Virus record (IMG/VR): IMGVR_UViG_3300036876_000145
Span: 19,489-83,488 of that record
Length of the DNA stretch: 64,000 bases
Strand: one strand, 5' to 3'
Origin: a virus
Lineage: Duplodnaviria > Heunggongvirae > Uroviricota > Caudoviricetes
How positions within the stretch are numbered: the first letter of the stretch is position 1; the number at the start of each line of letters is the position of its first letter. Shown here in pieces: positions 2,093-55,911 of the stretch. A program made the position numbers and the translations under genes. The notes below the pieces were generated by a model. That model was not told the DNA's origin, ran no database searches, and was given only the letters and a program-made list of their open reading frames with translations.

Positions 2093-2434
2093 ATGAGTAT
2101 AGACGGAAACGGGCATATCAACGTTGACGATCTCGCGGATGCTTTCGCGGCGATATTTCGTCACGACATGGAGCCGCCTGAACTGATGATTTGGGCTGAT
2201 CCACCGGGAAGAGAATCGGGCACTTGGGTGTTCCGCAGGGGTCACGAACCCAGTTGTCTCGGCGATGACGCGGCAAAGCGCGAAGGTCGGAACTTTGACC
2301 CGCTCTACGGCACCGTCGAAATCTACTGCACGTACTGTGGGTCCTTCGTGGACATGCTCTGGCGCTGGCAGACGAGCGACAGCGTGTGGCAGAAGTTCAG
2401 GGATCAAGCAAAGTTCGGGTTAGCTCAAGGTTAG
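2093..2434 (+). CDS. hypothetical protein inside a GC-rich island
   Basis: 113-aa ORF in a ~55% GC segment (about 1900-2500) flanked by tRNA and tRNA-like elements. No homology recognised. Confidence 0.3.
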   Translation: MSIDGNGHINVDDLADAFAAIFRHDMEPPELMIWADPPGRESGTWVFRRGHEPSCLGDDAAKREGRNFDPLYGTVEIYCTYCGSFVDMLWRWQTSDSVWQKFRDQAKFGLAQG

Positions 2435-2487
2435 GCAGAGCAGCCGCGCAAGCGGAAGACCGGCGGGTTCGACTCCCGCCCCCTAAG
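2412..2487 (+). ncRNA. tRNA-like element with a GNRA tetraloop in place of the anticodon loop
   Basis: D-arm-like tagctcaaggttaggcagagc and T-arm cggcgggttcgactcccgcc. The anticodon position is the hairpin ccgc-GCAA-gcgg. No clean acceptor pairing found. Confidence 0.3.
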
Positions 2488-2531
2488 TAACAGGGTTTCA
2501 CTCTTATTTTTCAAAAAAAGATGCTGATGCT

Positions 2532-2732
2532 ATGGTACAAGCCATTACTCCTTACCATGTTGATGGCCAATATTCAGTTGTACCTGTTGAGATCAAAGAT
2601 ATAACTTACATAGGTACAGACGGTACTATGTGGTACACCACTCCAGAGACGCGTAGTATAAGAAATTATGTATCAAATAAAATAAGACTTCTTCCAATCA
2701 AGAAAAAGAAAAATAAAAAGAAAGGAAAATAA
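2532..2732 (+). CDS. MCL-family C-terminal fragment (truncated paralog)
   Basis: 66 aa matching only the C-terminal motif of the family (VPVEIKDITYIGTDG...NYVSNKIRLLP plus a lysine tail). Lies just downstream of the GC island. Confidence 0.4.
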   Translation: MVQAITPYHVDGQYSVVPVEIKDITYIGTDGTMWYTTPETRSIRNYVSNKIRLLPIKKKKNKKKGK

Positions 2733-2733
2733 A

Positions 2734-3138
2734 GTGAAAATTGGGATCAGAGGGTGGCTCTTGGTGTTCGTCATCTGGATGTACTGTAATGCTCTGGTTT
2801 ATTTTCTAGCGTCTTTTGACTCTTCCGACCCTTGGCTTGGGAATGGAGGGATTAAAAACTTTCATTCTTTCATACCCATATTTTTAACTCTCTTGGCGAG
2901 TGCTTCAGCCATACTATTAACAAAAAAAAGAGTAGAAGGCATACTTCTCGCTGTGGGTTTTTTAGTCTTGAGTGTGGTTGTGACGACAGTCTTGGTATTT
3001 TGGAGTATATCCGCTAAGAGTTTGTTTGTACCCTTATATTTTTTATCTTTGGTACGAACTTCTATCGCTGCGTGTATTTGGATACCGTATCTTAACTACT
3101 CTCAAAGAGTAAGGAACACTTTCGGGACAAATCTATGA
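2734..3138 (+). CDS. small membrane protein
   Basis: 134 aa with multiple hydrophobic helices. Confidence 0.5.
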   Translation: MKIGIRGWLLVFVIWMYCNALVYFLASFDSSDPWLGNGGIKNFHSFIPIFLTLLASASAILLTKKRVEGILLAVGFLVLSVVVTTVLVFWSISAKSLFVPLYFLSLVRTSIAACIWIPYLNYSQRVRNTFGTNL

Positions 3139-3169
3139 CCCTTTCATCTAACTTAGTCACAAAGTCCAC

Positions 3170-3496
3170 ATGGGGCAGTATATTTTGTATAATATCGGCT
3201 TGATTCTACTGATATTGTTGGGTATGTTTGGGTACCAGTGGGCCTATGTCCTGTACGGTCTGTTGATGCTTATGTCTTGTATCGGATGTCGATTGGTTTT
3301 ATTCTATGGGCAGACAGAGGATAACAAAAAATTTCAAGCCATAATGAACCAATCAGTATCCCCTGTCTTTAGCGTCGGGGTTGACATGTTCCAGGTATTT
3401 TTGCTAGGCTTTGGCTGGCACTTGTTTTTAGCTGCACTGGTTGTCGTGTCCCAATGGGATGAGATGGAAATCCGAAAACGCAGACTGGGAAGATGA
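3170..3496 (+). CDS. small membrane protein
   Basis: 108 aa, hydrophobic. Confidence 0.45.
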   Translation: MGQYILYNIGLILLILLGMFGYQWAYVLYGLLMLMSCIGCRLVLFYGQTEDNKKFQAIMNQSVSPVFSVGVDMFQVFLLGFGWHLFLAALVVVSQWDEMEIRKRRLGR

Positions 3497-13225: not shown

Positions 13226-15322
13226 ATGGGTCTTCAAGAATACACCACAGCGCTAAACGCGAAACTAGAAAAAGCACGGGACGCTTATTACAAGAAGGGC
13301 GAACCCGTGATGTCCGATGCTGAATATGACGCTCAGGAAAAAGAGTTGGCGGATATAATATCGGCTAATCCTCAATTGAAGGTGTTCGCCCCTGTACTCC
13401 ATACAGTGGGTTCCGATGTAACGGCCTCTGGAAGAGTGAAGCACAGCCGTCCCATGCTCAGCATTGAGAACAAATACACTGTTGATGACTTTGTGGAATG
13501 GGCTAAGAAAATATGGGCAGGATATCCCGACGCCAAATTCTGCTTAGAGCCAAAATTTGATGGTGTGAGCGTAGAATTAAGGTATAGGCATGGAAAATTG
13601 CATCAAGCCGTTTCCCGCGGTACGGGCAGTGAAGGAGAAGATTGCACTTTACAGGTAATGGCGATCAAATCCATTCCAAAAACAGTACCTAATAGTTTTC
13701 CAAATGTGTTTGACATTCGGGGAGAAATGGTCATGCGGAATGACACCCTTGAACGTCTCAACGCTGAGGCCCAAAAATATGGGGGTAAAATTTATCAGTC
13801 CACCCGTAATCTAACAGCGGGTACCATGAAAAAGCAAGACGCTAAAATTGTAGCTAGTCGTGACCTTGAATATAGACCTTGGGAAGTGACAGGTTCAGAT
13901 TTAAATGATAGTGGGTTTGCCCGCTTGGATATGCTTGTTGATGCGGGGTTTGTCGCTCCCTTGGGAGAACTGGTAGAAGATGAAGCTTCACTACGAGCTG
14001 TTTTAGCGAAGAAACTTAAGGAGCGCACAACTAAACTTCGTGATATTCTTTCCTTGGAAACTGATGGCGTAGTCATTAAAGTAGATTCGAATGCTTTACG
14101 CACACAGTTAGGAGTTGCTTCTAAATATACCAACTGGCAAACCTGCTTCAAACCCCAATCTGCCTCTGGTACTACGTATCTACGCAGCATCGAATGGCAG
14201 GTAGGACGAACAGGAAAATTGTCTCCTGTTGCGGAATGTGACCCCGTGATACTGGCTTCCGCGAAGGTCGAACACGCCAGTCTTAACAACATCTCCTGGA
14301 TTAAAGAAAAAGGTTTGAAACTGGGGGCAAAGGTAGAAATGCTGCGATCCGGGGATGTGATCCCTCAAATCGTTCGTGTGATTGACGAAGGGGATGATGA
14401 AATCATTCCACCAACAAAATGTCCGGAATGCGCTGGAAAAGTTGTGGAGATGGATGAGGGCGGAGTAGGCATCATTCAACATTTTTGTACCAATCAAGCA
14501 TGCCCCGGTATTCTACGGGGGTATTTGGCTTTTATTGGTAGTAGGGATGTACTAGAAATCGATGGGTTGGGTCCAGAAGCAGCAAGAACACTAGTGAAAG
14601 AGGAAGGGATCCATGATCTGGCTGGGCTTTTTAATTTTTATAATAGATGCCAAGATAAAAGACTCTCCATGGATACAAATAAAGAATTTATCGCCTATGC
14701 TCGAATGATAGGATTTGATGCCACTCTTCCCAAAATGTTGGATTCCTTAGAGAAGGCTAAAACCGCTCCTTGGGAGCGTTGGATCAAAGCTTTGGGGATT
14801 CCTATGATTGGGGAAACTCATGGTAAAGCTTTGGTGACATTTTTTAAGCTCACCCCAGAGAGCTTCAAAGATTTATGGCAAATTACCCAAAACTTGGAAG
14901 AGAACAAAATTGAGGGTATAGGGCCGCAGAAAATAAAAGCTTTATCTGAATGGGGGGCGAACCCTGACAACAAAGTTTTGTGTTTGTCATTATTCAATTT
15001 AGGTGTGCGTCCTACTCCTCCGGAAACGCCTAAAATAGTAGCTGGGGCACCTCTAAGTGGTATTATTTTCTGCATTACAGGGGAGTTTGACGAAGATAGA
15101 AACTCTCTTATCAAGAAACTTGTTAGCTTAGGGGCCGAATCTAAAACTGGTGTAACCAAAAAAATAAATCTTTTGATCGTTGGTGATGACGCGGGAAAAA
15201 CTAAGTTGACTAAAGCCGCAGAATTAGGTATAAAACAAGTAGGGAAAGATTGGCTCGTTAAAACTTTGTCCGATAGCGGCATTAAAATGTCGCAAAATAA
15301 CTTTGTTCCAGAGCAGGCGTAA
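13226..15322 (+). CDS. ligA: NAD-dependent DNA ligase
   Basis: Ia domain YYKKGEPVMSDAEYD, adenylation KxDG (EPKFDGVSVEL), OB domain, Cys4 zinc finger CPECAGKV...CTNQACPG, HhH region, C-terminal BRCT. Confidence 0.9.
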   Translation: MGLQEYTTALNAKLEKARDAYYKKGEPVMSDAEYDAQEKELADIISANPQLKVFAPVLHTVGSDVTASGRVKHSRPMLSIENKYTVDDFVEWAKKIWAGYPDAKFCLEPKFDGVSVELRYRHGKLHQAVSRGTGSEGEDCTLQVMAIKSIPKTVPNSFPNVFDIRGEMVMRNDTLERLNAEAQKYGGKIYQSTRNLTAGTMKKQDAKIVASRDLEYRPWEVTGSDLNDSGFARLDMLVDAGFVAPLGELVEDEASLRAVLAKKLKERTTKLRDILSLETDGVVIKVDSNALRTQLGVASKYTNWQTCFKPQSASGTTYLRSIEWQVGRTGKLSPVAECDPVILASAKVEHASLNNISWIKEKGLKLGAKVEMLRSGDVIPQIVRVIDEGDDEIIPPTKCPECAGKVVEMDEGGVGIIQHFCTNQACPGILRGYLAFIGSRDVLEIDGLGPEAARTLVKEEGIHDLAGLFNFYNRCQDKRLSMDTNKEFIAYARMIGFDATLPKMLDSLEKAKTAPWERWIKALGIPMIGETHGKALVTFFKLTPESFKDLWQITQNLEENKIEGIGPQKIKALSEWGANPDNKVLCLSLFNLGVRPTPPETPKIVAGAPLSGIIFCITGEFDEDRNSLIKKLVSLGAESKTGVTKKINLLIVGDDAGKTKLTKAAELGIKQVGKDWLVKTLSDSGIKMSQNNFVPEQA

Positions 15323-17955: not shown

Positions 17956-19857
17956 ATGGCTGGACATGTTACCCCACAAGCGAAGGTTCTTTTGGTTATT
18001 GTTGGAGTTGTAGGACTCTGTTTCTTAGGTAAGACAGCGATGGAACGGGGCTGGATGCCAACTCCCAACATCATGAAGGCGATTGTCCCATCCCACATTT
18101 CACTTCCAGAAGTGAAAGATGCACAGGTTGCGAATGTTGTACCGGCACCCCTACCACAAAGCACACCGGCAACCGTTTCTAATACGCCTATCATCGGAGA
18201 AGTTTGGGAATGGAATGCTATGTTAGGTCATCTATTGGCAAACGGCGGTAAACATACAACCGCTGGTTCCCTGATGGCAAAGCGTAATGTTAATCTGACA
18301 CTTAAGAGGCAAGATCTCACCGATCAAATGCAATTGGATTTGATCGCTTGTGCCAGCCAGCTAGCGGGGGGGTCTACGGATTGTTCCACCGGAGCGAACT
18401 ATGTTATTATCATGGGCGACGGTGCGGGGCAATTTGCAGCTGCTACCAATCCAAAGCTTTATGACTTGGACTGCAAGGGAAAGCCAAAGGGCTGCGTTTC
18501 GAAGTATACGCTCAAGGTTATCGCCGCAACTGGATATAGCCGCGGAGAAGATGCCTTTTTGGCCCCTCCGAATGTAAAGAAAGATTCCAAGTCTTTCAAT
18601 CAATCCCCTATGCCTGGGTCGCAAGATTCCAAGGGTCAGGAAATTACTGGCCTATTGGTTGAAGGCGTTCTTCGTGATGGTGATTGGAACATCGCCTTAA
18701 AGTGGGCTGGTGATAACGCCATCCCCAATAACCCGGACGAAAAGACTTTCGATCCAGATGCAGTTAACTGGATCAATGCTCCGGATTACAACACCGCCGC
18801 TACAGATTATGTCGCCGGTAAGTGCGAAGATCGTAAACTCGTGCATGCGGGGCGTCCTACAGGGGATATGGTGCATGTCTGTGTAAACTCCCTTGTGACT
18901 TGGACACCCGGAGATGTTGTAGCCGTGACGAAGAAGGGCGGCGTAGTGAAGGTTGTTTCTTCCAAACAAAATCGCAGTCAGATGCCCGCTGTGATTATTG
19001 GTCCGGCAAAGTTTTTCCAAGACAATCGGGAAGAAATCACTAACATGCTCGCTGCTACTTTCGAAGGTGGCGACCAAGTGAAGGCGTTTGACTTGGCTCT
19101 GCACAAGGCGGCAGCTATTTCATCCGATGTTTATGACGATAAGGGTGATGCTCCAAACGAAAACGGAGACTACTGGTACCGTTATTACAAGGGTGTTCCG
19201 TACAAGGATCCCACCACGGGGCAGATAGTCGAACTAGGCGGTTCGTCTGTGAACAACTTGGATGATAACCTTATCTTGTTTGGTATGAAGGATAAGGGGA
19301 ATGACAACTTCCGCTCAACTTATACGCTCTTTGCGAACATTGATGTACAGCAATACCCAACTTTGTTCAAAGAGACTCCAATTCCTGATGTGAAGCTTGT
19401 GGAAGATAAGTCTTTCATCCAGGGAGCGAAGGATATACTCAGCGGGGATAACAACACCGGCTCCGAAGCAGCGGAACCAGCGTATGAACAGCAAGCTACG
19501 GGAAGTGTCATTGGTCAGCGTGCCTATGATATCAACTTCAAGACGAATGAAGCGAAACTTACCGAGGCTGGTGAGGCACAGTTGAAGCAATTGAAGGATG
19601 GCTGGGCAATCACCGGAGCGTTTATTCAGGTCGATGGCTATACAGACAGCACAGGCAATGAAGATCACAACCTTGAACTATCAAAGGGACGTGCGGCCGC
19701 TGTGGTTACATACCTGCACACAAACTGGCCGACAAACTTCCCGGCAAAGCGTTTCAAAGCCACGGGTCACGGTTCTCAAGACCCCGTAGCTTCTAACGCT
19801 ACAGCCGAAGGGAAGGCTCAAAATCGTAGGGTTACGATTACCCTGCTAGGCAAGTAA
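17956..19857 (+). CDS. OmpA-family protein (N-terminal TM anchor, C-terminal OmpA/MotB peptidoglycan-binding domain)
   Basis: Start set at MAGHV, which has an aggag Shine-Dalgarno. C-terminus ...GYTDSTGNEDHNLELSKGRAAAVVTYL is an OmpA C-like domain. Confidence 0.75.
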   Translation: MAGHVTPQAKVLLVIVGVVGLCFLGKTAMERGWMPTPNIMKAIVPSHISLPEVKDAQVANVVPAPLPQSTPATVSNTPIIGEVWEWNAMLGHLLANGGKHTTAGSLMAKRNVNLTLKRQDLTDQMQLDLIACASQLAGGSTDCSTGANYVIIMGDGAGQFAAATNPKLYDLDCKGKPKGCVSKYTLKVIAATGYSRGEDAFLAPPNVKKDSKSFNQSPMPGSQDSKGQEITGLLVEGVLRDGDWNIALKWAGDNAIPNNPDEKTFDPDAVNWINAPDYNTAATDYVAGKCEDRKLVHAGRPTGDMVHVCVNSLVTWTPGDVVAVTKKGGVVKVVSSKQNRSQMPAVIIGPAKFFQDNREEITNMLAATFEGGDQVKAFDLALHKAAAISSDVYDDKGDAPNENGDYWYRYYKGVPYKDPTTGQIVELGGSSVNNLDDNLILFGMKDKGNDNFRSTYTLFANIDVQQYPTLFKETPIPDVKLVEDKSFIQGAKDILSGDNNTGSEAAEPAYEQQATGSVIGQRAYDINFKTNEAKLTEAGEAQLKQLKDGWAITGAFIQVDGYTDSTGNEDHNLELSKGRAAAVVTYLHTNWPTNFPAKRFKATGHGSQDPVASNATAEGKAQNRRVTITLLGK

Positions 19858-49802: not shown

Positions 49803-49835
49803 AGTGTTTCCGATGTATACTAGGGATGGAGGCGA
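49803..49835 (+). promoter_or_regulatory. TGTATACTAGGG-type promoter-like element (copy A of a 40-bp duplicated block)
   Basis: atccattttcagtgtttccgatgtatactaggga is identical to 51907-51939. Extended -10-like TGTATACT sits about 10 nt before the ATG. Confidence 0.4.
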
Positions 49836-49836
49836 T

Positions 49837-50742
49837 ATGACAAAGAAAAGTAGCTCTGATGTGGCGGCTGATTTGAAAAGTGCAATGGGTTCCGCTGCCG
49901 ATGCAAAGACTATTCTCGATACACCAGATAAGAAAACCGCCAGCCGTTCCACATGGAAGGGTTATATTTCCGCTTTTGGCGTTATGCTGATTCCCGCCGC
50001 AACCCTGAAAGCCACTGATGTTGATGCTATCGAAACCCACATGTACCATAGCGCTGCTTGTCCGAATCGTTTGGTGCAGAAATACACCTGCTCTTGCTGC
50101 GACACCGAAGTCCCCAACGCTCGTACAAACGCCCTTAAGGGTGTAGAAGTGGGGGACAAAGTCATTACTCTCACTCAAGCGGAATTAGACGCTCAGAAGC
50201 CCACTAGTGACAAAATTCTCAAAGTCACCGAGTTTGTTCCCGCTGATGCGATTGATGTTACCTACTACGAATCCAGCGAATACATCGCCGCTGATAAGGG
50301 TGGGGAAAAAGCCTTCGCCACATTCCAGCAAGCCTTGGCGCAAACGGGGCGTATCGCTATCGGCACCTTCGTAAGCCGCGGTCACCAATACACTGTTGCA
50401 CTTCGCCCCAAGGGTCAGTATGGTATCGTCATGTCTTATTTGTTCGCGGAATATGAAGTTCGCAACTGCGGCAAGTGGACGCCTGTTGTTGTCAATCCGG
50501 CAGAAGTTGATTTGGTCAAGCAGCTTATGACTGAAACCGAACTGGCAAAAGAAGTATTCACCCCCGCCGCCTATGACCCCTATCTCTCTGGCGTGCGCAA
50601 GATGATTGCTGCTAAGGCAAATGGTACGGAAGTTTGCACCCCGGCTGCGGACGAAGTTCCCAAGGCTACGGATGATTTGTTGGCGGCGTTGAAAGCTACC
50701 CTGGAGCAGCAAAAGGCAAAGGCTGCAAAGGCTGGTGTATAA
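49837..50742 (+). CDS. ku: Ku protein (non-homologous end-joining DNA end-binding)
   Basis: WKGYISAFGVMLIPAATL, YYESSEYIAADKGGEKAFATFQQALAQTGRIAIGTFVSRGHQYTVALRP, YLFAEYEVR match bacterial Ku (WSGAISFGLVNVPVKLY, YYLAPDKGGEKAYALLREAL...AIARFV...LAALRP, YADEVR). A Cys-rich insert HMYHSAACPNRLVQKYTCSCCD. Confidence 0.85.
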   Translation: MTKKSSSDVAADLKSAMGSAADAKTILDTPDKKTASRSTWKGYISAFGVMLIPAATLKATDVDAIETHMYHSAACPNRLVQKYTCSCCDTEVPNARTNALKGVEVGDKVITLTQAELDAQKPTSDKILKVTEFVPADAIDVTYYESSEYIAADKGGEKAFATFQQALAQTGRIAIGTFVSRGHQYTVALRPKGQYGIVMSYLFAEYEVRNCGKWTPVVVNPAEVDLVKQLMTETELAKEVFTPAAYDPYLSGVRKMIAAKANGTEVCTPAADEVPKATDDLLAALKATLEQQKAKAAKAGV

Positions 50743-54059: not shown

Positions 54060-54362
54060 ATGAGATTTTCTTATGACGAAGACGCAGATGTGATGTATAT
54101 CCGCTTCTCAGAGTCGTCCTCTACCACATCATACTTAGAGAATGACAATGGAGACATCCTCCGCTTCGACGAAGCAACTGAGAAACTTGTAGGCGTTACT
54201 ATCCCTTGGTTCAAGGAAAGAATTCTTAAGGGAGACATTTTAGATATTCCAGAAATCGAGGCAATTCCATTTGGTTCGGACATGAGAAAGTTGATAAACT
54301 CTAGAACGGTACGATCAAAAAATTCGGCCCTACTAAAGCCGGAGAATGAGATTGATTTATGA
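54060..54362 (+). CDS. hypothetical protein
   Basis: 100-aa ORF. Confidence 0.45.
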   Translation: MRFSYDEDADVMYIRFSESSSTTSYLENDNGDILRFDEATEKLVGVTIPWFKERILKGDILDIPEIEAIPFGSDMRKLINSRTVRSKNSALLKPENEIDL

Positions 54363-54556
54363 CATTTGAAATCGATCCACCGGAACCATGCCCTGATTGC
54401 GGCAGCACACACCATCGCAGCTGCACAATGAGTGGTGTTGGCCCTGAATTAGACATAATTCTTGACCCAGATCCTAAATGTGAGTTTTGTCACGGAACAG
54501 GGCGGATTTACGCCCTGATCAATGTGCGGTGTTCTTGCACCTATGGAAATGAATGA
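54359..54556 (+). CDS. zinc-ribbon mini-protein
   Basis: 65 aa; CPDCGS...CEFCHG. Confidence 0.4.
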   Translation: MTFEIDPPEPCPDCGSTHHRSCTMSGVGPELDIILDPDPKCEFCHGTGRIYALINVRCSCTYGNE

Positions 54557-54643: not shown

Positions 54644-55459
54644 ATGTCCAACTACTACAACGAATACGAACCGCATGCAGCCGCTTGGTTGCGAAATTTA
54701 ATCAGCGCGGGTCTGTTGCCAAAAGGGGATGTTGATGAACGAAGCATTACAGATGTTACAACTAGCGACCTCGCAGGATACACCCAATGTCACTTCTTCG
54801 CCGGGATCGGCGGATGGTCCGTCGCCCTCCAGATCGCAGGAGTGCCAGACGACTACCCAATCTGGACAGGGAGCTGCCCCTGTCAACCCTTCAGCGCCGC
54901 ACCTGGAGAACGAAAAGGTACTGCCGATAAACGTCACCTCTGGCCTGTCTGGTCAGGGCTCATCCGCGAGTGTCGCCCTGCAATTTGCTTTGGAGAACAA
55001 GTTGAGGCAGCTATTAGGTACGGATGGCTCGATATTGTATCGGCAGACTTGGAAGATCAAGGCTACGCCGTCGGGGCGGCGATACTTGGCGCTTGTAGCG
55101 TCGGCGCTCCCCACAAGCGACAACGGCTATATTGGGTGGCCGACTCCCAACGCGTCCCAGCACAATTACTACGAGAACCCGGACGGATGGTTAGCGAGAC
55201 AGGAACAGCGGAAAAAGGACGGCAAGCAGACGTTCGCGATCAACTTGGGAATAGCGGCGAAGTTCACTTCTGGGACAGCCCTGAGTGGCTCGCCTGTAGA
55301 GACGGGCGACAAAGACCATGTGAACCCGGAGTTAGCCCGCTGGCTAATGGGATTCCCAACCGGGTGGACAAATTACGCGCCTACGGGAACTCGATCTGCC
55401 CTCCGCTCGCCTCGAAATTCATTCAAGCGGTCCTTGAAGCGAAAGAAGAAATCCAATGA
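54644..55459 (+). CDS. DNA (cytosine-5)-methyltransferase
   Basis: Motif I FFAGIGG, motif IV GSCPCQPFS, motif VIII GAPHKRQRLYWVA, C-terminal RAYGNSICPPLA. An overlapping second frame (54729-55472) also encodes a canonical motif X: NPELARWLMGFPTGW. Confidence 0.7.
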   Translation: MSNYYNEYEPHAAAWLRNLISAGLLPKGDVDERSITDVTTSDLAGYTQCHFFAGIGGWSVALQIAGVPDDYPIWTGSCPCQPFSAAPGERKGTADKRHLWPVWSGLIRECRPAICFGEQVEAAIRYGWLDIVSADLEDQGYAVGAAILGACSVGAPHKRQRLYWVADSQRVPAQLLREPGRMVSETGTAEKGRQADVRDQLGNSGEVHFWDSPEWLACRDGRQRPCEPGVSPLANGIPNRVDKLRAYGNSICPPLASKFIQAVLEAKEEIQ

Positions 55460-55911
55460 CGACACCGCTTAACCGATCAGTCAATTGCCGTGTATGCGGT
55501 GTGCTCATTCCAAAACCACGCTCATCCAACAGGAAGTATTGCAGCGATGCACACGCCCAGAAAGGGTTCCGCCTAGACCATCCCGACCATGAAAAGGAAA
55601 GGTACCAGAAGGACAAACAGGGATGCAGGGCACGTCATTTGATTCGTAAGTATAAAGGGTTCACCCAAGCCGACTATGACAAAATGCTTGCCGAACAAAA
55701 CGGGGCGTGCAAGATATGCGAATGCAGGCAGGAGAAGTGCCTTGACATTGACCACGACCACAAGACTGGACGAGTTCGTGGCCTGCTTTGTCACAACTGC
55801 AATTTGATGCTAGGAAACGCCCACGACGATCCAGAAACACTCGCCAAGGCGATTAAATACTTGGCAAGTCGCGGCGGCATCGTGAAGGCAATTATTGACG
55901 AGGTGCGGTAA
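55456..55911 (+). CDS. recombination endonuclease VII-family (T4 gp49-like Holliday-junction resolvase)
   Basis: CKICE...CLDIDHDHKTGRVRGLLCHNCNLMLG matches the Endo VII zinc-binding / catalytic signature. Confidence 0.8.
   Translation: MTTPLNRSVNCRVCGVLIPKPRSSNRKYCSDAHAQKGFRLDHPDHEKERYQKDKQGCRARHLIRKYKGFTQADYDKMLAEQNGACKICECRQEKCLDIDHDHKTGRVRGLLCHNCNLMLGNAHDDPETLAKAIKYLASRGGIVKAIIDEVR

Follow-up and report, generated by a model that had tools for sequence, protein, structure and literature searches.

A phage cytosine methylase gene that probably encodes the two subunits of one enzyme in overlapping reading frames

Two Overlapping Frames in One Methylase Gene

The window analyzed here, a 64,000-nt stretch of DNA from a virus of the class Caudoviricetes (IMG/VR record IMGVR_UViG_3300036876_000145, positions 19,489 to 83,488), carries a C5-cytosine methyltransferase gene whose canonical motifs are divided over two overlapping reading frames. 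How a functional methylase could be obtained from such a gene is the question raised by this locus. A preliminary description, made from the letters of the window, had recognized the division and had offered three explanations: a pseudogene with compensating indels, local frameshift errors of the assembly, or programmed frameshifting. Our analysis confirmed that the motifs are divided and that both frames are real, as judged from the motifs read in each and from the openness of, and selection on, both frames at 144 loci. The locus is quite probably an alpha/beta heterodimeric cytosine methylase of the M.EcoHK31I type, for which a single DNA stretch is read in two frames. The two open reading frames (ORFs) lie on the same strand:

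54644-55459, + strand: alpha gene (frame A, 271 amino acids), catalytic subunit (large domain) of a C5-cytosine methyltransferase, carrying motifs I-VIII and X

54729-55472, + strand: beta gene (+1 frame, or frame B, 247 amino acids), the proposed small-domain subunit with a homologue of the variable region (target recognition domain, TRD) and motif IX

Both frames are open for more than 240 codons, as had been stated. The beta product has 247 amino acids (aa) when started from the ATG at 54729 and 245 aa when started from the ATG at 54735, and it spans approximately 90% of alpha (245-247 of 271 codons) from a point upstream of motif I. Its ORF ends 13 nt past the alpha stop codon and so lies almost, not strictly, within the alpha gene. 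The following methylase motifs were read in frame A:

54794-54814, + strand: motif I, FFAGIGG (S-adenosylmethionine [AdoMet] binding), invariant in the alignment

54878-54895, + strand: motif IV, PCQPFS (catalytic cysteine), invariant in the alignment

54989-55003, + strand: motif VI, FGEQV (ENV-type), with a third-position entropy (H3) of 0.06 at position 120

55103-55141, + strand: motif VIII, GAPHKRQRLYWVA, with alpha as the selected frame (entropy HA of 0.83 for frame A vs. HB of 1.80 for frame B)

55376-55411, + strand: motif X, RAYGNSICPPLA, with alpha as the selected frame

The earlier assignment of motifs I, IV, VIII and a C-terminal GN motif to the frame starting at 54644 was borne out by these reads. 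FFAGIGG, PCQPFS, FGEQV, HKRQRLYWVA, and YGNS, all of them in frame A, were invariant or nearly so among 89 homologues. From the same nucleotides, frame B reads NPELARWLMGFPTGW where frame A reads EPGVSPLANGIPNRV. The LMGFP-type motif of the +1 frame had been taken for motif X, but it is motif IX, and motif X is the C-terminal GN(S/A) motif of alpha.

Openness of the +1 Frame Across Related Loci

A search with the frame A protein returned at least 8000 candidates, and 160 further loci were fetched from IMG/VR and GTDB genomes, with at least 600 rows matched per contig scan. The set of loci analyzed comprised 144 related loci from many bacterial phyla and phages. For the null expectation, synonymous codons were permuted so that the alpha protein and its codon usage were kept. 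The +1 frame was open over a mean of 89% of the gene (minimum 65%), compared to 23% for the +2 frame, which contained a mean of 13.5 stops in the same genes. In the core and C-terminal part, 0.19 stops were observed in the +1 frame vs. 2.55 expected from the shuffles, and the open run upstream of the conserved beta core extended over 82.6 codons vs. 33.9 expected. An ATG-started +1 ORF reaching from before motif I to the end of the gene was present at 121 of the 144 loci, compared to 3.2 expected.

When phage genomes were searched by tblastn, 447 records were obtained for frame A and 176 for frame B. Both frames were open in Xanthomonas phage FoX4, in gene 58 of N15, in gp80 of mycobacteriophage Che9d, and in two metagenomic/genomic loci. 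The closest relative among the matches listed, which is 78% identical in alpha and lies on a 447-kb metagenomic contig, also contains the beta ORF. Furthermore, products identical to both window frames were found in independent public metagenome assemblies (P0001, Joint Genome Institute; P0121, European Nucleotide Archive), and their occurrence in assemblies from different sources argues against a local assembly error. The proposal of such errors is also contradicted by the same layout in the finished genomes of K1H, FoX4, N15, and Che9d and in the closest relative among the matches listed. The proposal of a pseudogene with compensating indels fared no better: both frames are intact and under purifying selection at 144 loci distributed over many bacterial phyla and phages.

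Frame-Specific Selection Along the Gene

Codon-position entropy was computed along the 144-sequence codon alignment. Each frame is conserved and open and shows purifying selection in particular regions, and the dominant frame alternates along the gene as follows (residue numbers of alpha):

aa 1-100: alpha selected, third position free

aa 106-153: both frames selected, interleaved, with beta constraint at many positions

aa 154-166: alpha selected, motif VIII

aa 211-225: alpha selected, with W210, W215, C218, D220, G221, and R224

aa 226-241: beta selected (HB 0.90 vs. HA 1.35; H3 of 0.55 below the first-position entropy H1 of 1.03), LNPxxSRWLMGxPxxW

aa 242-262: alpha selected, motif X

The beta strings TSSPGSADGP and PVNPSAP merely reflect alpha motifs I and IV in the other frame. 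Within the interleaved segment, Leu136 of alpha is always encoded by NTG because beta keeps a Trp, and the third base of alpha Val120 is nearly invariant because the same base sets a conserved Leu in beta. The alternation was also visible when the window was compared with its closest relative among the matches listed. Alpha was the better conserved product over alpha aa 31-105 (87% identity vs. 48% for beta), and beta was the better conserved one over alpha aa 167-209 (93% vs. 70% for alpha). In this second stretch, substitutions affected alpha codon positions 1, 2, and 3 at 23%, 9%, and 2% of sites, respectively.

The Alpha Product

Pfam family PF00145 matched frame A with 59.6 bits (cut-off 22), but only over aa 67-186, and gave no match to frame B; alpha also matched phrog_363 at 1.5e-74. 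According to the preliminary description, the two-frame idea would fall if a single frame scored against methylase profiles over the whole length, the LMGFP motif then having arisen by chance. This did not refute the idea, as LMGFP is not a chance motif. Pfam scans of artificial A-B-A chimeras and of both alternative C-terminal halves did not discriminate between them, and PF00145 aligned to the N-terminal half only.

The AlphaFold2 (AF2) model of alpha had a predicted template modeling score (pTM) of 0.69, and the core (aa 1-170) was mostly of high confidence. Its best fold match was M.HhaI (E value, 2e-8), with approximately 168 aligned columns covering the large domain only. The poorly conserved linker of aa 174-207 had a predicted local distance difference test score (pLDDT) below 50, indicating predicted disorder, and was followed by a small alpha-specific hairpin formed around W210, W215, C218, D220, G221, and R224. 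The residues that shadow motif IX (aa 231-250) reached a pLDDT of approximately 53, and a confident C-terminal helix (aa 253-270) followed motif X. Neither codon selection nor the AF2 model revealed a motif IX of alpha's own or a folded small (TRD) domain.

The Beta Product and Its Homology to a Monomeric Methylase

Gp70 of mycobacteriophage ShiLan (JN020143) is a one-frame C5 methylase with motifs I-VIII, LLPTPxAxDGxGG repeats, LAPAFSEWMMGWPAGW, and GNGVVPQQA. The conserved segments of beta are as follows:

54960-55148, + strand: conserved N-terminal core (N-core; SSASVALQFALENKLRQLLGTDGSILYRQTWKIKATPSGRRYLALVAS...GWPTP), a leucine-periodic helix and a beta-hairpin, interleaved with alpha motifs VI-VIII

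55142-55322, + strand: variable-region (TRD-like) segment, supported by the comparison with the closest relative among the matches listed and by hhalign to the LLPTP repeats of ShiLan gp70

55323-55367, + strand: motif IX, NPELARWLMGFPTGW, with beta as the selected frame, aligning to LAPAFSEWMMGWPAGW of ShiLan gp70

The conserved part of beta is composed of three elements. The first is the helix and hairpin with the pattern LxxRLxxxLxxxGSxLYxLTWKxxxTPSGR; per-position entropy revealed beta-specific constraint in this N-core at L112, L116, L120, L124, G128, S129, T135, W136, K137, T141, and P142, and the N-core is a candidate for the element that binds alpha. The second consists of WPTP-type modules, which ranged in number from 0 to 7 by a loose pattern count and were mostly 1 to 3. 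The third is LNPxxSRWLMGxPxxW, motif IX.

The largest number of modules was seen at locus L003 (2919-4296), where beta contains seven WPTP modules and frames A and B comprise 457 and 434 codons, respectively. The alpha product of this locus carries DGMADA-like, low-complexity repeats rich in D, E, R, and G, which continue for approximately 200 codons without a stop. From this locus it can be seen to what length alpha remains open simply as a spacer.

The beta-core profile aligned to ShiLan gp70 aa 238-356, which contain the LLPTP repeats and motif IX, with an hhalign probability of 94.8% (E value, 5e-8), and the alpha profile aligned to aa 66-160 of the same protein (E value, 7e-20). By these profile comparisons, the part of monomeric enzymes to which the beta core is homologous is the variable region (TRD) together with motif IX. 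A de novo origin of beta as an overprinted protein was considered and ruled out, as a homologue of its core lies in frame within a monomeric methylase. Because of this homology, the overlap most likely arose by displacement of an existing coding sequence into another frame rather than de novo.

Among phage protein families, phrog_1008 and phrog_31772, both labeled "DNA methyltransferase" in PHROGs, matched the beta product of the window. The protein database of the metagenome collection contained 409 beta homologues, none of them with a Pfam domain. No family of Pfam or NCBIfam matched beta, and a search of PDB sequences with the beta-core profile returned only chance matches to LptG (E value, ~0.5).

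Putative Translation Start of Beta

An ATG in the +1 frame upstream of the beta core was present at 143 of the 144 loci, and a Shine-Dalgarno (SD)-like sequence at 125. Most of these ATGs are made by GAT codons for Asp together with the following G or A, at alpha positions 31, 37, and 41. Asp37 was encoded by GAT at 95 loci and by GAC at 20, while the corresponding counts for Asp42 were 30 and 85. The window offers +1-frame ATGs at 54729, 54735, and 54753; an SD-like AAGGGG stands 6 nt ahead of that at 54735, which is the better placed. A universal beta start formed by GAT-GAA at alpha D31-E32 was rejected, since GAT was found there at 87 of the 144 loci and the starts are spread over positions 29-41. 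The start codons and SD-like sequences suggest that beta would be translated from its own start codon.

Proposed Organization and Alternative Explanations

According to the organization that we propose, alpha would supply the AdoMet-binding catalytic large domain, in which motifs I-VIII are followed by a short linker bearing a small hairpin and then by motif X. Beta would have a start ATG of its own (54735 or 54729), a short way upstream of alpha motif I, and would supply the DNA-recognition small domain, consisting of the helix and hairpin, the WPTP-type TRD-like segment, and motif IX. The two products would then associate into the equivalent of a monomeric C5 methylase.

Several observations weigh against this organization. 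The AF2 model of beta alone was poor (pLDDT, 63.6; pTM, 0.28), with residues 1-75 as coil, a helix at 77-94, a hairpin at 106-120 (pLDDT ~80), and short helices including motif IX. The low-confidence model gave no fold match in Foldseek, a search that is meaningless with such a model. A subunit that needs its partner for folding may be expected to give a poor model as a single chain, though this is no proof. The first ~75 residues of beta, probably a disordered tail, are without amino-acid conservation, yet the frame is kept open there. Alpha also retains the conserved mini-hairpin (W210...R224). We infer the separate translation of beta, its association with alpha, the need for both products in activity, and any target sequence, and for translation and association this applies to the window and to every related phage alike. 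Finally, the likeness to M.EcoHK31I is an analogy with its described architecture, not a sequence comparison, and the alpha subunit of M.EcoHK31I has been described with a predicted TRD, whereas the TRD homologue lies in beta here, so that the split is not identical.

An improbable alternative is that the product of frame B is real but has a role that is not connected with the methylase, such as a regulator or an anti-defence factor, as an ordinary overprinted gene. This would fit a product that lacks a family in Pfam and NCBIfam, frequently bears the annotation "hypothetical," and has the long disordered N-terminus typical of overprinted genes. However, monomeric C5 methylases have the homologues of the beta core in their variable region and motif IX, and alpha shows neither selection for a motif IX of its own in that stretch nor a folded small domain; therefore, the two products are better regarded as complementary parts of one enzyme. 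In the M.EcoHK31I precedent, moreover, such a beta was needed for methylation (PMC2836561).

Even less probable is that, along the lines of the third early proposal, programmed frameshifting (+1 after motif VIII and -1 after motif IX) or transcriptional slippage would produce one A-B-A chimera with the order I-VIII, TRD, IX, X. This order is exactly the single-frame architecture of ShiLan gp70, and selection does switch from A to B and back to A along the gene. However, neither a conserved slippery heptamer nor conserved nucleotides were found at either frame junction in the 144-locus alignment, where alpha positions 164-168 and 241-244 are variable. Frameshifting also leaves unexplained the approximately 80 open frame B codons before the first junction, which come with their own ATG and SD-like sequence, and the open frame A throughout the B-selected middle, as in the 434-codon frame B within the 457-codon frame A of L003. 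Moreover, the first WPTP of the window overlaps the motif VIII strand WVAD, so that one chain cannot hold both. We know of no precedent for two efficient opposite frameshifts within one gene.

That frame B is not expressed at all, its openness being a by-product of GC-rich composition and frame A constraint or the remains of a decaying pseudogene or assembly artefact, can hardly be credited: a GC content of 55.8% does lower the frequency of stop codons, and the N-terminal "conservation" of frame B merely mirrors alpha motifs I and IV, but the +2 frame of the same genes is full of stops, the spanning ORF far exceeds its frequency in shuffles, alpha aa 167-209 and 226-241 show the substitution pattern of a gene read in frame B with the third position of B the most variable, an independent homologue of frame B exists in the different reading context of ShiLan gp70, and identical sequences recur in independent assemblies.

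Genomic Context of the Methylase Gene

The gene downstream of the methylase is the following:

55456-55911, + strand: endonuclease VII gene (PF02945; E value, 1.3e-22)

Its ATG overlaps the alpha stop codon (ATGA at 55456; TGA at 55457-55459) and lies inside the last codons of beta. This arrangement suggests that translation of endonuclease VII may be coupled to that of alpha. Since beta runs on to a TAA at 55470-55472, all three forward frames are coding between 55456 and 55472.

The methylase gene had been described as a GC-rich island directly upstream of endonuclease VII, which agrees with its GC content of 55.8% vs. 44.2% for the whole window. Across 137 loci, the GC content of the methylase gene exceeded that of its flanks by 4.1 points on average (Wilcoxon p 3e-17), and the excess amounted to 5 to 16.5 points in low-GC hosts. 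An island of this kind is thus characteristic of the methylase gene family and need not mark a recent transfer, although the excess can pass for a horizontally acquired island. A plausible cause is the avoidance of AT-rich stop codons in two frames.

The methylase gene is located in a phage replication module. As no restriction enzyme is adjacent, it probably encodes an orphan methylase. Just upstream lies a 65-aa ORF (54359-54556) with two CxxC pairs, one of them within a motif of the type seen in DnaJ zinc fingers, CxxCxGxG (CEFCHGTG). The window (1-64000) contains 22 ORFs of 220 aa or longer, every one of them on the + strand. Among these are genes for an NAD-dependent DNA ligase (13226-15322), for a Ku-like protein (49804-50742), and for an SNF2-type helicase (56920-58908). 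A megablast search of the 47-62 kb region around the gene against 50,697 phage records returned no match. The window seems to come from a phage or mobile element that is novel and may be large.

Implications for Annotation and Methylase Evolution

Reviews regard two-subunit C5 methylases as two isolated exceptions (PMC3404938). Our results point to the overlapping alpha/beta design as a common one among phages and prophages of many phyla. We lean toward the broader view that the M.EcoHK31I layout, far from a rare exception, is how the phage and prophage C5 methylases of a very large clade are normally built. In such genes the entire small domain for DNA recognition (TRD and motif IX) would be placed in the +1 frame over almost the whole length of the alpha gene, with specificity that evolves by gain and loss of WPTP modules (0 to 7) in beta and with alpha as a mere spacer opposite them. 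If true, these genes would be among the longest and most widespread conserved same-strand dual-coding regions in bacteria and phages and would provide a natural platform of domain-split methylases.

Gene callers and reference annotations choose one frame. Half of the enzyme is routinely missed or mislabeled because annotations pick a single frame, as in FoX4, N15, and Che9d and among the 409 beta matches without a Pfam domain. For evolutionary studies, the family offers a clean and deep data set for selection on two frames, with the dominant frame switching several times per gene. Tools for targeted methylation can be developed from natural heterodimeric methylases (PMC2836561), and this methylase family supplies very many natural variants.

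Comparison With Known Methylases

M.EcoHK31I of E. coli HK31, which recognizes YGGCCR, is a natural heterodimeric C5 methylase (Lee, Kam and Shaw 1995; summarized in PMC2836561 and PMC3404938). Its beta subunit is encoded wholly in another frame inside the alpha gene; alpha contains motifs I-VIII, motif X, and a predicted TRD, beta contains motif IX, and activity needs both (PMC2836561, PMC3404938). The N-terminal part of beta is partly dispensable and takes part in the association with alpha (PMC2836561, PMC3404938). The window locus resembles this enzyme in having a second conserved open ORF in the other frame of the alpha gene, with motifs I-VIII and X in alpha and motif IX in beta. Unlike in M.EcoHK31I, beta of the window is nearly coextensive with alpha and holds the TRD homologue. 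The subunits of M.EcoHK31I were reportedly given as 309 and 176 residues in 1995.

The other natural two-subunit C5 methylase is M.AquI of Synechococcus PCC 7002, which recognizes CYCGRG (PMC3404938). As in M.AquI, the enzyme of the window is split within the variable region into two polypeptides; these must associate in M.AquI and are proposed to do so here. In contrast, the small subunit of M.AquI contains both motifs IX and X and its genes are serial with a short overlap, whereas motif X is in alpha here and the overlap is nearly complete. An M.AquI-type arrangement, with motifs IX and X in the small subunit and serial genes, was not what we found at this locus: YGNS lies in alpha, and alpha is the frame selected there.

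The same two-frame layout occurs in homologues from Escherichia phage K1H/K1G (GU196278), Xanthomonas phage FoX4 (gp11), N15 (gene 58), and Che9d (gp80), which are known from annotation alone. Alpha identity to the window is approximately 52-57% for these phages, except for Che9d with only ~33%. K1H is annotated with both overlapping ORFs, ORF29 as "C-specific methylase" and ORF28 as "Mte8-like protein." A literature search for "Mte8" or overlapping/dual-coding phage methylase genes found only annotation labels for this family. In FoX4 (L002, NC_055839, 2365-3214), the RefSeq entry gp11, "DNA methyltransferase," corresponds to the beta frame, and the catalytic alpha frame (2365-3198) has no annotation, while in N15 gene 58 (L168, 586-1596) and Che9d gp80 (L166, 391-1149) the alpha frame alone is annotated. 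The methylases of FoX4 and K1H are also located in a module with DNA polymerase and helicase genes, and in FoX4 with an endonuclease gene too.

ShiLan gp70 shares with the window the order of modules, namely motifs I-VIII, LLPTP/WPTP repeats, LxPxFxxWxMGxPxxW (IX), and GNxVVP (X), and both halves are homologous. Unlike those of the window, the modules of ShiLan gp70 lie in one frame and form one polypeptide, and the ORFs in its other frames are short, extending over no more than parts of it. In the actinobacteriophage methylase of Che9d (L166), a +1 ORF of the beta type (WHTPTTND...NPVWIEWLMGFPPNW) is found at 533-1129. Given that Che9d has the two-frame and ShiLan the single-frame layout, both coexist among related phages, and the transition between them might be datable. 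A heterodimer encoded in two frames is already known from one E. coli enzyme; what is notable here is the breadth of the family and the placement of a whole small domain in the second frame.

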